Source of the DNA: an uncultured Pseudomonadota bacterium
GTDB taxonomy: Bacteria; Myxococcota_A; Polyangia; Fen-1088
Assembly (NCBI GenBank): GCA_963774325.1
Contig: CAVZEF010000005.1
Location: forward strand, 680,296 to 744,295
Reading direction: 5' to 3'
DNA: 64,000 bases
Part shown: positions 42,312-47,735 of the stretch, piece after piece
Numbering within the stretch: the first letter of the stretch is position 1
Layout: the number at the start of each line of letters is the position of its first letter
Made by a program: the position numbers and the translations under genes
Notes under the pieces: model-generated
What the model saw: the letters and a program-made list of their open reading frames with translations, nothing else
The model's database searches: none
Told to the model about the DNA's origin: nothing

Positions 42312-43671
42312 CGATGCCGCCGACGCGCCGCGCCGTCGCTGGAGTCGTCGCTGAACCTGGCCTGGGTGCTGATCGGCGCGTTTCTCGTGATGTTCATGCA
42401 GGTCGGCTTCGCGATGGTCGAGACCGGCTACGCGCGCGCCAAGAACGCCGTCCACGTGATGGCGATGAACCTGGTCGTCTATCCGGTCGGCGTGCTCGGC
42501 TTCTGGCTCACCGGCTTCGCGTTCATGATGGGCGGCGTGTCGGGCTGGCCGACGCTCGGCGCGCGCCGTCGCCCGGCGCGCGCGAGCTCGGCGCCCGCAC
42601 ATCGGTGGCCACTTGTTCGGGCTCTTCGGCGCGTCGCGCTTCGCGCTGGTCAGCGCCGCGCAGGATCCGAGCAGCCTGGCGATGTTCCTGTTCGCCGCGG
42701 TCTTCATGGACACGGCGGCGACGATCCCGACCGGCGCGCTGGCCGAGCGCTGGCGGTTCGCCGCGTTCCTCTGCTACGCGCTGTTCATGTCGATGATCCT
42801 CTACCCGCTCTACGGCAACTGGGTGTGGGGCGGCGGCTGGCTGTCGGCGCTGGGGCAGACGGCGGGCCTCGGCCACGGCCACGTCGACTTCGCGGGCTCG
42901 TCGGTGGTGCACATGACCGGCGGCGTCGCCGCGCTGGCGGGCGCGATCGTCGTCGGGCCGCGCGCGGGCAAGTTCCGGCGCGACGGCACCATCGTCGCCA
43001 TGCCCGGCCACAACCTGCCGATGTCGGTGCTGGGCACGCTGGTGCTCGCCTTCGGCTGGTTCGGCTTCAACGCCGGGTCGACGCTGTCGGCGACCGACGC
43101 GCGCATCGCGATCATCGCCGTCAACACGATGCTGGCCTCGGCGGCGGGCGCGGTGTCGGCGCTGATCTACGTCTGGTACACGGTCGAGAAGCCCGACATC
43201 GCCATGGTTTGCAACGGGCTGCTCGGCGGGCTGGTCGCGATCACCGCGTCGTGCGCGTTCGTGACCCCGCCGGCCGCGGTGCTGATCGGCGCGGTCGCCG
43301 GCCTGCTGGTGGTCTGGACGGTGGTCGCGCTCGAGCGCCGGCTGCGCGTCGACGATCCCGTGGGCGCGATCGCCGTCCACGGCGCGTGCGGCGCCTGGGG
43401 CGCGCTGGCGCTGGGCCTGTTCGCCGACGGCAGCTACGGCGCGGGCTGGAACGGCGTCGCCGGCCCGGTGCGCGGCCTGCTCTTCGGCGACGCGGGCCAG
43501 CTCGCCGCGCAGGCGATCGGCGTCGCGACCAACGCGGTCTTCGTCTTCGCCGCCGCCTACGGCTTCTTCGTCGCCTGCGATCGCGTGATCGGCAACCGCG
43601 TCGCCGCCGAGGTCGAGTCGGTGGGCCTCGACTCGATGGAGATGGGCTCGGAGGCCTATCCGCCCGGCTGA
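42308..43671 (+). CDS. amt: Ammonium transporter (Amt family), frameshifted near the N-terminus
   Basis: FMQVGFAMVETG..RAKNA, GALAER, WVWGGGWL, DFAGSSVVH, GWFGFNAGS, DDPVGAIAVHG, RV..E.E..GLD..E.G..AY. Confidence 0.93.
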
Positions 43672-43812
43672 TAGCGGCATCGCGCGCTGATGGACCGCAA
43701 TTGCGCGCGGCCAGTGCCACGTGCGCCGCGAGGGCTGACACGAAATCGTGACACGGCCGGCGACCGATCGCGCACGCGACGCGGCCGCCGGCTTGCTACG
43801 CTCGAGCCGTTC

Positions 43813-44485
43813 ATGACGTCGACGTCGACGGCGCCAGCGACGGGAACCCGGTGGCGGTGGCTCGAGCTCGCCGCGTCTTCGGGTCGCGCCGCTGGTGCTG
43901 GCGCTGGCGCCGCGCCGGATGGTCACGCTGGGGATCATCGGCAGCGGCCTGCTCTCGCTGGTCGCGCTGCTGCTCGATCCGACCTTCCCGCGGCGGGCGC
44001 TCTGGGACGCGACGCTGGCGCGCCAGGGCCTGCGCGACCTGGCGGTGCGCACGATCTTCGTCTGGACCGGGCTGCTGGCGTTTGCGTTGCTGCGCGCGCG
44101 CCCGCACCTGTTCGAGATGCCGCGCACGCGTCCCGTCGCCTGGCTGCTGGTCGTGATCCTGTATCCGCCGATCTCGGCCTTCTCCCAGGAGATCATGTTC
44201 CGCACGCTGTTCTTTCATCGCTACGCGGCGCTGCTGCGGCGGCCGGCTGCGCGCGTGATCGCCAGCGGCCTGCTGTTCGGCTGGGCGCACATCGTCGTCC
44301 ACAACCTGTCGGCGATCTTCCTCGCCTCCGTGGGCGGCCTGCTGTTCGCCGCGACCTACGAGCGCCGCCGCTCGACGCTGCTGGTCTCGATCGAGCACGG
44401 GCTCTACGGCGACTTCATCTTCACGATCGGGCTCGGCGGCCTGTTCTACAACGTGCACCGCGCGCTCGAGGCGCTCGCGCGCTGA
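43813..44485 (+). CDS. CPBP (Abi/CAAX-type) intramembrane metalloprotease (frameshift near 43880)
   Basis: QEIMFR, FGWAH, EHGLYGD motifs in a hydrophobic ORF. Confidence 0.82.
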
Positions 44486-44509
44486 GGCGCGCGATGTGCA
44501 CGCTGTCTC

Positions 44510-44537
44510 TTGACAGTCGCTGCCCGGTCGCTAACCT
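44510..44537 (+). promoter_or_regulatory. Candidate sigma70 promoter
   Basis: TTGACA (44510-44515), N16, TAACCT (44532-44537), upstream of the ankyrin gene leader. Confidence 0.65.
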
Positions 44538-44543
44538 CGCGGC

Positions 44544-44667
44544 GAGTGTGTAGGGCGCTTCCTGTCCGCGGAGAGGGACCGAGTCCCACCTATCGATTGA
44601 ACAGCGAGCAGGTGCGCTTCTTTCTGCCCGGAACCGCGGACGTCGGGCGTGATGAAAGGAGCTGCAC
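44544..44667 (+). ncRNA. Candidate structured 5' leader RNA (cis-regulatory, possible pseudoknot)
   Basis: Hairpins GGGAC/GTCCC, ACCT/AGGT and GCCCG/CGGGC; loop CCGCGGAC (44634-41) is complementary to GTCCGCGG (44564-71); ends at SD AAAGGAG. Confidence 0.5.
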
Positions 44668-46104
44668 ATGCCCTCCCGATCCCTGCCGGCGCGTCCCGAT
44701 CTCACTCAGCTCAGGCTGCAGGCCAAGGAGCTGCGTCGGGCACATCGAAACGGCAGTCCTTCGGCCGCGGCGCGCATCCTGACGCATCACCCCCGCCTGC
44801 GCCGCCGGACGTTTCGCGACGCGCAGGAGGCGACAATTCTCGCTGGCCGACGCGCAGCTCGTGGTGGCGCGAGAGTACGGGTTCGAGAGCTGGATCGCGC
44901 TCAAGCGGCACGTCGCGATCTCGCGGCGGCTGGTGCACATGCGGACGCACCCGGGATTCGCGGCCGCGGTCGAGGCGTTCGACCGCGGCGACCTCGATCG
45001 CCTGCGCGGCTTGCTCGCCGCAGGATCCGACGCTGGTGCGCGCGCGCGGATTTCTGGAGCCCCCGTTTGGCTATTTCAGCGGCGCGACACTGCTCCACCA
45101 CGTTGCCGGCAATCCCTGCGCGCGCCGCTACCGCCGAACGTCGTCGAGATCGCCGCGTTCCTGATCGAGGCCGGCGCCGAGGTGCAACGCGCGCACGCTG
45201 TCGCCGACCTACGGTGAGACGACGATGGATCTGGTGCTCACCAGCCAGCACGCCAGCGAGGCGGGCGTGTCGGGGGCGCTCATCGATCTGTTGCTCGCGC
45301 ACGGCGCGCGCCTGGACCTGCGCGCGCCCGACGTGCTGCACCGGTCGCTGTCCAACCACGCGACGCGCGCGGCGGAGCGGCTCATCGAGCTCGGCGCCGA
45401 GGTCGACGTGTGCGCGGCGGCGGCGCTCGGCCGCATGGATCGGCTGCGCGACGCCTTCGACGCCGGCGGGCAAGCTGAAGACACCGGTGCGGCGCGGGAC
45501 CGAGACGCTGTCCGAGCGCGACGCCATCGGGCTGGCGATGCTGTTCGCCTACGTGAACGGCCGGCGCGAGGCGGTCGACTTCCTGCTGGAGAAGGACGGC
45601 AACTGGAACATGATCGGCGTGAACAACGGCACCGCGCTCCATCGCGCGGCCGGCGCCGGCGATCGCGCGATGGTCGAGCGGCTGGTGGCGAAGGGCGCCG
45701 ACCTCTACGACCGCAACAACCCGTTCAACGCCACGCCGCTGTCCTGGGCGGATCACGAGGGAAGGACCGAGGTCTTCCACTGGATGCGCACGCACTGCCC
45801 GGTCGACATCCACGACGCGGTCTGCTTCGGCCTCATCGATCACGTGCGCGCGCGCATCGCCGAGCGCGCCGACTGCGTCAACGACGCCATCGATCAATGG
45901 CAGATCCCGCGCGCGACACCGCTGCACTTTGCGGCTCACATGCGCGCGGCGGCGATCGTCACGCTGCTGCTCGACGCCGGCGCGCAGCCGAGCACGCTGG
46001 CGGGCGACGGGCGCACCGCGCTGGACATCGCGGAAGCGCGCGGCGCGGTCGAGGTCGGCAAGCGGCTGGCCGCGCGCGGTGGCGTGCGCGCGTCGGAGTT
46101 CTAG
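44668..46104 (+). CDS. Ankyrin-repeat protein with an N-terminal LPARP-L-QL--QAK / AQ--VAREYGF-SW domain (several frameshifts)
   Basis: MPSRSLPARPDLTQLRLQAKEL..LADAQLVVAREYGFESW; ankyrin motifs GATLLHHVA, GTALHRAA, ATPLSWA, ATPLHFAA, GRTALDIA. Confidence 0.82.
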   Translation: MPSRSLPARPDLTQLRLQAKELRRAHRNGSPSAAARILTHHPRLRRRTFRDAQEATILAGRRAARGGARVRVRELDRAQAARRDLAAAGAHADAPGIRGRGRGVRPRRPRSPARLARRRIRRWCARADFWSPRLAISAARHCSTTLPAIPARAATAERRRDRRVPDRGRRRGATRARCRRPTVRRRWIWCSPASTPARRACRGRSSICCSRTARAWTCARPTCCTGRCPTTRRARRSGSSSSAPRSTCARRRRSAAWIGCATPSTPAGKLKTPVRRGTETLSERDAIGLAMLFAYVNGRREAVDFLLEKDGNWNMIGVNNGTALHRAAGAGDRAMVERLVAKGADLYDRNNPFNATPLSWADHEGRTEVFHWMRTHCPVDIHDAVCFGLIDHVRARIAERADCVNDAIDQWQIPRATPLHFAAHMRAAAIVTLLLDAGAQPSTLAGDGRTALDIAEARGAVEVGKRLAARGGVRASEF

Positions 46105-47270: not shown

Positions 47271-47735
47271 TCAGCCGCCGGGGCCGTCCGCCATCAGCTC
47301 ACGCTCGAGGTTGTCGACCTTGAGCGCGAGCTCGGCGGAGTCGGACGCCAGCATGTTGGCGTCGCGCACGAGCACCCAGTGCCCGCCGAACTCCTTGCGA
47401 AAGATCGACAGCACCGGCCCGCGCCTCACGGTCGGCGTGCCGCCGTCGAGCGGCGCCATGGTCACCGTGAGCGTGGCCCAGCAGCAGGCGAGGTCGCCCG
47501 AGACCAGGATCTCCTCGATCTCGGCGCTCGACTGGATCGCGCTCGACTCCGTGGCCGCCGCCAGCTCGTGCGCGAACGCGGTACGGCCGCGCATCGGTGC
47601 GCGTTCAGCCGCCAGGAACACGGCATCTTCGGAGATCATGGACAGCAGCGCCGCCAGATCGCCCGCGCCCATCGCCCGGTGCCATCGGTTCACCCACGCT
47701 CGGATCGCCTTTTCGTCTCGACCTTGTGAGCCCAT
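47271..47735 (-). CDS. SnoaL-like/DUF4440 (SgcJ/EcaC-type) NTF2-fold protein
   Basis: DEKAIR..WH.A..GDL..L..EDAVFL, IEEILVSGDLA, LSIFRK..G.W...RDANML. Confidence 0.85.
   Translation of the reverse strand: MGSQGRDEKAIRAWVNRWHRAMGAGDLAALLSMISEDAVFLAAERAPMRGRTAFAHELAAATESSAIQSSAEIEEILVSGDLACCWATLTVTMAPLDGGTPTVRRGPVLSIFRKEFGGHWVLVRDANMLASDSAELALKVDNLERELMADGPGG

Follow-up and report, generated by a model that had tools for sequence, protein, structure and literature searches.

Introduction

Bacterial leader RNAs that tie a pseudoknot to the start of translation are known from, among others, two kinds of system. The translational riboswitches SAM-II, preQ1-II, and preQ1-III hold the Shine-Dalgarno sequence (SD) in a pseudoknot or abut it with one, and in Escherichia coli the autoregulatory leaders of S15 and of S4 (the alpha operon) form pseudoknots that include the ribosome-binding site. 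Here we describe a leader RNA of ~124 nucleotides (nt) that precedes an ankyrin gene in an uncultured bacterium (GTDB Myxococcota_A; Polyangia; Fen-1088), on contig CAVZEF010000005.1 of assembly GCA_963774325.1; the whole stretch that was analyzed, 64,000 nt long, is called the window, and coordinates below are window positions on the + strand unless stated otherwise. Comparison across loci shows a conserved, knotted fold in which the SD is buried in a long helix and the loop of this helix is docked to the 5′ domain, and we infer that the leader gates the initiation of translation and that some factor modulates this gating. The leader is probably a new genetic switch.

With SAM-II, preQ1-II, and preQ1-III the leader shares its place as a cis-acting 5′ element, a pseudoknotted form, a ribosome-binding site occluded in the folded state, and conserved unpaired bases. 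It differs from them in its size of ~124 nt, in having two crossing pseudoknots and a separate SD hairpin of 16 pairs, in standing before repeat-protein genes, in being coupled in both directions to one protein domain, and in having no match in Rfam. The likeness to the S15 and S4/alpha leaders lies in the position before the gene of the candidate binder, in a pseudoknot tied to the ribosome-binding site, and in the one-to-one coupling of RNA and protein; the protein here, however, is no ribosomal protein and shows no RNA-binding fold of a known kind, and its binding to the leader is putative. As these two groups are generally described, the leader falls outside both the SD-occluding riboswitches and the ribosomal protein leaders, and we regard it as a new family of cis-regulatory leader RNA. 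Its sequence is moreover conserved across phyla, whereas the ribosomal protein leaders of E. coli are described as narrowly distributed (PMC3616713). For the pnuC motif, or NAD+-II riboswitch, the known transport substrate of the gene reportedly pointed to the ligand (PMC7749635); unlike in that case, nearly every examined gene of the present family carries the RNA.

A preliminary description of the locus, made by reading the letters of the window, had failed to place the leader in any known riboswitch class, and this stands: Rfam 15 gave no match at gathering score in the 64-kb window or in 20 diverse member loci, and at E ≤ 10 the region 44400–44760 returned only a small nucleolar RNA model, whose 14.6 bits fall short of its threshold of 45 and amount to noise. 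No publication describing the leader RNA was found by searching the ankyrin-leader literature and the motif strings, and the main texts of two motif surveys (PMC11109978 and PMC5737381; supplements outside the search) contain none of the terms ankyrin, Gemmatimonad-, Acidobacter-, Planctomyc-, or leucine-rich.

Conservation and Covariation of the Leader

Folded as a single sequence, the region 44540–44675 reaches a minimum free energy of −52.6 kcal/mol, against −51.5 ± 4.1 for dinucleotide shuffles (z = −0.27), which is not above chance, and the case for structure therefore rests on comparison. Over an 801-nt query, the window shares 90 and 86% identity with two congeneric genomes; in the leader itself (44545–44667) they differ at 3 and 9 positions with no insertions or deletions, as counted on the alignment, and the spacer from the upstream stop codon to the −35 hexamer is unconserved in them. 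When 151 genomes of the class were searched with the full-length protein, a single partial relative turned up in addition to the gene of the window, and full-length orthologues of ~55–60% identity were numerous in a large protein collection. Scanning of genome contigs yielded 45 loci, labelled as Myxococcales, Planctomycetota, Gemmatimonadota, Acidobacteriota, and metagenome-assembled genomes (MAGs) of Steroidobacteraceae, and ~130 nt upstream of the gene proved strikingly alike in the 34 loci with a recovered gene start. A 23-letter degenerate pattern derived from these upstream sequences occurred in at least 120 stretches of a metagenome collection, and 80 metagenome loci were taken from these matches.

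A covariance model (R1), built from 95 distinct leaders, matched 96 of 100 sources with 98 matches. At E ≤ 0.001 it found the RNA in 33 of the 34 orthologue loci, which bears out, over five labelled phyla, the remark in the preliminary description that similar leaders precede homologous genes in other phyla; the remaining orthologue locus (L075) keeps only the 3′ hairpin. Two metagenome sources (L079 and L144) look like chance pattern matches, and L087 is a partial case, without a match at E ≤ 0.001 in this search but with a partial match of 82 nt at E = 7.6e-4 when filters were off.

Pairing was assessed over 37 proposed pairs in three alignments: a MAFFT alignment of the 95 distinct leaders (A3), a model-based alignment of 98 sequences (A4), and a broad alignment of 102 sequences including paralogues (A6). 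In A3, 93.3% of the cells are paired, compared to 90.9% after shuffling and 39–53% when the strands are slid, and 15 of the 37 pairs are changed on both sides; the corresponding values are 94.0, 90.8, and 41–53% with 20 of 37 pairs in A4, and 92.2, 80.5 ± 0.3, and 45–52% with 30 of 37 pairs in A6. None of the five measures used was equalled in 500 shuffles, on any of the three alignments. The nested helices served to fit A4 and A6, so that the nested counts of these two lean towards the model; the two pseudoknots (PK1 and PK2, below) lie outside it. The structured leader suspected from the window thus gains support from covariation upstream of homologues, above both shuffled and slid controls. 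Conservation together with covariation-supported structure is what the aptamer of a riboswitch would display.

A Double Pseudoknot and a Shine-Dalgarno Helix

The leader (about 44544–44667) is predicted to fold as a compact double pseudoknot. It would begin with hairpin P1, in which GAGUGU (44544–44549) pairs with GCGCUU (44555–44560) around the loop GUAGG; in the broad alignment 89% of its cells are paired and four of five pairs are changed on both sides. This loop (44550–44554) forms the 5′ strand of PK1, whose 3′ strand is CCUAU (44589–44593), the five bases after the hairpin Pa. All five pairs of PK1 are changed on both sides in the three alignments, and in a partner-swap test the native helix averages 4.18 base pairs (bp) against 3.55 ± 0.06 for swapped partners, a value that none of 1000 swaps reached. 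Neither P1 nor PK1 was part of the structure first proposed, which instead paired ACCT (44588–44591) with AGGT (44610–44613). That pairing has to be given up, as AGGT reads TGGT in both same-genus relatives and the ACCU stretch pairs with the P1 loop.

PK2 joins 44564–44571, read in the window as GTCCGCGG, to the loop sequence CCGCGGAC at 44634–44641, its exact reverse complement. The eight-nucleotide complementarity noted earlier is therefore exact in the window, where GG extends the core and gives a helix of 8 bp, but the conserved core is one of 6 bp, GUCCGC (44564–44569) with GCGGAC (44636–44641): the second-to-last pair is a G-A mismatch in the relative G002, and in the unique leaders the bases on the loop side of the two additional pairs are variable. 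The core is nearly invariant, with 99.8–100% of cells paired in the three alignments, and compensatory changes preserve it in L272 (GCCUGC with GCAGGC), L279 (GUCCAC with GUGGAC), and L283 (GUUCGC with GCGAAC), and partly in L253. The pseudoknot that the preliminary description had considered possible is supported by these compensatory changes.

Pa is the hairpin GGGAC-CGA-GUCCC (44575–44579 with 44583–44587), 98.9% paired in the broad alignment, with four of five pairs changed on both sides. It is followed, beyond the PK1 strand, by a linker (44594–44613) that differs in length and sequence between loci and forms a hairpin in many relatives, a weak one here. Hairpin Pc, GCCCG with CGGGC (44626–44630 with 44644–44648), carries the 3′ strand of PK2 in its loop, is 97.6% paired, and has four of five pairs changed on both sides. 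Directly beneath it stands Pd, in which a pyrimidine-rich anti-SD strand (44614–44624) pairs with 44654–44665, U44663 being bulged; the latter strand holds the Shine-Dalgarno sequence AAGGAG (44656–44661). In the broad alignment 90% of the cells of Pd are paired, ten of its 11 pairs are changed on both sides, and G-U pairs are frequent. Pc and Pd together make 16 pairs, and the window's hairpin on its own folds at −26.3 kcal/mol. RNAalifold, applied to A3 with no structure supplied, recovers Pa and the whole SD helix, in agreement with the terminal hairpin by the SD that had been described from the window, and the SD is found occluded. The SD lies inside Pd, the downward extension of the hairpin that engages in PK2 through its loop, an arrangement expected of an expression platform. 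RNAalifold also proposes pairs of GG (columns 40–41) with CC (columns 59–60), which compete with PK1 and were rejected, PK1 covarying better.

Variants of the fold occur among the metagenome contigs. Seven of them (L083, L084, L099, L119, L125, L126, and L131) form a leader subfamily with an extra variable hairpin between Pc and the SD strand. The one base that otherwise separates Pa from the PK1 strand is missing in this subfamily, and the N-terminal domain at the start of its genes is of a slightly different type. In two others (L092 and L107) a unit of ~22 nt with the GCGGAC loop motif is present in three tandem copies in the last hairpin of the leader.

Distribution and Coupling to an N-terminal Domain

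The genes downstream of the leader share an N-terminal helical domain of ~85 residues that starts with LPxRP and is followed, where scanned, by ankyrin repeats, leucine-rich repeats, or both. In the window genome there is one copy of the RNA and one domain gene, adjacent to each other, and BLASTN of the leader against this genome gave no match besides the leader itself. Five other genomes hold one to five copies of the RNA each. In the phylum to which G163, labelled as a Gemmatimonadaceae MAG, belongs, 41 of 151 sampled genomes carry 70 copies between them, and in that of G162, labelled as an Acidobacteriota MAG, the RNA occurs in 13 of 151 sampled genomes; it is also found in Myxococcota, Planctomycetota, and one gammaproteobacterial MAG.

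Among the 70 copies in the G163 phylum sample, 67 are followed by an open reading frame (ORF) that starts with LPxRP...AKxL...ADAQL..AREYGF.SW as judged by eye, a strict regular expression having flagged fewer such starts (26 of 37 in one subset). One of the other three is cut by the contig end and two are weak partial matches to the RNA. The coupling also holds in reverse, the RNA being present upstream of all 17 domain genes in five genomes. In the window's phylum, where the domain gene was found in eight of 301 sampled genomes, the RNA lies upstream of six of eight further domain genes at E ≤ 0.005, with scores that drop as the domain match weakens. Back-to-back copies of the leader, each driving its own paralogue in opposite directions, were observed in L044 (2155–2289 on the − strand and 2367–2503 on the + strand) and in L119 (387–557 on the − strand and 695–857 on the + strand).

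Pfam recognizes only ankyrin repeats in the intact protein, all in its C-terminal part, and nothing in the first ~90 residues. A predicted model of the domain has five helices, with a confidence (pLDDT) of 86.6. A weak Pfam match to Glyoxalase_8 hints at relatives of the domain in Actinomycetota. The acidobacterial orthologues L047, L049, L052, L053, L056, and L066 are about 1055–1067 amino acids (aa) long, and in L039, L040, L048, and the L047 group (~910–1070 aa) a long, cysteine-containing leucine-rich-repeat region comes after the ankyrin part.

The start of the coding region has a peculiarity of its own. The Arg of LPxRP is encoded by CGT in 62 of 99 genes, compared to 10.5% (416 of 3948) of the other Arg codons of these genes, a count that may be inflated by shared ancestry. 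This bias yields a GUCC motif ~25 nt into the gene, the Arg-Pro codons of the window being at ~44689–44694; the motif showed no covariation with the variants of Pa or PK2, and no pairing partner could be assigned to it.

Possible Modes of Regulation

A working scheme can be drawn from the fold and the coupling. The leader would be transcribed from its own promoter and fold into the double pseudoknot, with the P1 loop pairing to the five bases after the GGGAC/GUCCC hairpin (PK1) and GUCCGC pairing to GCGGAC in the apical loop of the last hairpin (PK2), which would dock this loop to the 5′ domain. The last hairpin would extend into the 11-pair helix between the pyrimidine-rich strand and the SD region, so that the ribosome-binding site is covered and the ankyrin gene is kept from being translated. 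Finally, the N-terminal helical domain encoded by the gene may recognize this RNA fold and determine how strongly the gene is translated, as an autogenous feedback. That the effector is the gene's own product, acting through this domain, is the explanation that we tentatively favor, because the coupling of RNA and domain runs both ways, across phyla as well as among paralogues. The leader also sits in the 5′ untranslated region of the candidate binder's gene with the SD inside the structure, the position that an autogenous leader would take. A broader proposal, which we hold with somewhat more reserve, is that leader and domain are a co-evolving RNA-protein pair, the domain being an unrecognized RNA-binding fold whose ligand is the double pseudoknot of its own mRNA. 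Soil and marine bacteria from five or more phyla would then possess autogenous control of this kind, or else a functional ribonucleoprotein.

Several considerations weigh against a leader that switches under its own gene product. That the domain would bind the leader is deduced from its coupling to the RNA, and a one-to-one coupling would also result if the gene were simply co-duplicated with its leader. Nearly invariant unpaired stretches are equally typical of small-molecule aptamers. No conserved alternative pairing that frees the SD emerged from two tested candidates, which leaves the ON state undefined: pairing of the anti-SD strand with the purine run GAAAGG before Pa reached 83.4% against 82.9% in shuffles, 107 of 500 of which did as well, and pairing with the 5′ strand of P1 reached 48.9% against 49.0%; neither candidate covaries. 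The domain model retrieved nothing at E ≤ 0.001 with Foldseek, its best VIA-align Z score was 3.8, and a profile search of the sequences of solved structures with the domain gave nothing below E = 0.45; as modeled, the domain appears to resemble no solved structure and gives no sign of a known RNA-binding fold. Lastly, at one locus (G166:C162:2453-3723; L215, L284) the RNA stands directly before an ORF for a 291-aa secreted protein of the DinB_2 family, and the domain gene starts 5 nt after it, the sole case of an intervening gene that was seen.

The last locus, with one copy directly before a DinB_2 gene that lacks the domain, would suit a small-molecule or ion riboswitch, in which the double pseudoknot is the aptamer and the ligand docks the loop of the SD hairpin through PK2, locking or releasing the SD helix. 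The same is true of the long unpaired stretches, nearly invariant across five phyla in which the proteins are only ~55% identical, of the combination of two pseudoknots with an SD-occluding platform, and of the regulon-like one to five copies per genome. Yet the regulated genes encode repeat scaffolds rather than enzymes or transporters and suggest no ligand: the helical domain with ankyrin or leucine-rich repeats, and the single DinB_2 protein, point to no common metabolite or ion. Nor do the surroundings help, as gene neighbors lack conservation between phyla; Pfam, applied to 39 of the 49 non-main ORFs in 25 orthologue loci (the other ten being the shortest ones and fragments that overlap the main gene), revealed no partner that is kept from phylum to phylum. 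Two-way coupling of an RNA and a protein domain, seen here in the 17 domain genes that all carry the RNA, is also unusual for riboswitches. A riboswitch is the main rival, somewhat less likely than feedback by the gene's own product.

A constitutive 5′ structure that does no switching, and that protects the mRNA from 5′-end-dependent decay or fixes a low rate of translation, would explain why P1 begins at the inferred 5′ end, why no alternative pairing for an ON state covaries, and why the SD helix is so stable. Such roles, however, rarely need ~45 nearly invariant bases and two covarying pseudoknots across phyla, and if the SD were permanently buried at −26 kcal/mol, expression would be all but shut off although the gene itself is conserved; we consider this explanation improbable. 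Slightly less probable again is a binding site for some other regulator that acts in trans on the whole gene family, whether a small RNA or a global RNA-binding protein. The several copies within a genome do share the invariant GUCCGC and GCGGAC and purine-rich stretches, as targets of one regulator might, but no candidate regulator gene is linked to the loci, and the patchy distribution tracks the gene itself (the eight of 301 genomes of the window's phylum), so that a regulator would have to travel along with it.

That conservation acts on the DNA, as operator sites of a transcription factor with palindromic CCGCGG cores, is very improbable: GTCCGCGG and CCGCGGAC are indeed inverted repeats with a palindromic core just downstream of the promoter, but compensatory changes preserve pairing and not sequence in six helices, the 3′ end of the element invariably falls at the SD and start codon, and the frequent G-U pairs, which in Pd fit the sense strand only, argue for RNA rather than DNA sites. 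An RNA thermometer was rejected as well, since in ROSE and fourU thermometers a short, imperfect SD helix melts close to physiological temperature and the sequence is little conserved, whereas this leader has a 16-pair SD hairpin, long invariant stretches, and two pseudoknots.

The Locus in the Window

All the strings that the preliminary description cited were found on the + strand by direct reading of the window, among them the two copies of GCGCTTC (44555–44561 and 44614–44620) and AAAGGAG (44655–44661) before the ATG at 44668. The promoter had been called near-consensus for sigma70, which is half right: the −35 hexamer TTGACA (44510–44515) is perfect, but the best −10 hexamer, TAACCT (44532–44537) after a spacer of 16 nt, agrees with the consensus at three of six positions, and a promoter scan called no site by its criteria. 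Among 97 distinct upstream regions, 73 have TTGAC 50–62 nt 5′ of the GUCCGCG anchor, with a peak at −55 to −57, and in 31 of these 73 it is followed 16–18 nt later by TAnnnT. On the basis of this spacing the transcript would start at ~44544, about the first base of P1.

Metatranscriptome contigs from four runs, two of which look like one data set filed twice, cover the leader and the start of the gene. One RNA-library contig matches 44554–44704 with four differences, three start at ~44542–44556, and none from the four runs covers 44502–44535; these contig ends are a weak hint of a transcript start, DNA carry-over being possible in the libraries. No terminator-like site was found in 44510–44670.

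The regulated gene, encoding the N-terminal helical domain and ankyrin repeats, occupies 44668–46104 when read in three frames, and changes frame at least five times in this assembly, which consists of six contigs and is 78% complete. At the matching place the relatives G002 and G004 have same-frame ORFs of 477 and 478 aa, of which that of G002 was translated, and in the window an ammonium-transporter gene is likewise split between two frames (42366–43751 and 42613–43671). Because the ORFs of the relatives are unbroken and a neighboring gene is split in the same way, the frame breaks look like indel errors of a long-read assembly. The relatives' contigs are without one base near 44834–44839.

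The gene upstream encodes a CPBP/Rce1-like protease by Pfam. At three loci in two phyla the gene adjoins functions of ligation and repair, namely RtcB, RNA 3′-phosphate cyclase, and an ATP-dependent DNA ligase domain (L043:3945-5513, L057:4219-5232, and L048:4927-5748), too few cases for a link, and in one protein of 809 aa (P0104) the ankyrin part is fused to ligase domains. A gene of SnoaL-like or ketosteroid-isomerase-like type lies near the ankyrin gene both in the window (47271–47735, − strand) and in a Longimicrobiales locus (L065:988-1449), and one database name for the relative P0118 pairs ankyrin with SnoaL-like, which is probably coincidence.

Implications

If the fold and the gating hold, the leader would represent a new and widespread class of structured cis-regulatory RNA, and its ~124 nt, two crossing pseudoknots, and very high conservation make it a good target for work on its structure and on its ligand or partner. 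It is in itself unusual for an RNA and a protein domain to be coupled almost one to one. The leader also offers a first handle on a large bacterial family of ankyrin and leucine-rich-repeat proteins that share an uncharacterized N-terminal domain, and whatever the RNA senses should tell when these repeat proteins are needed.

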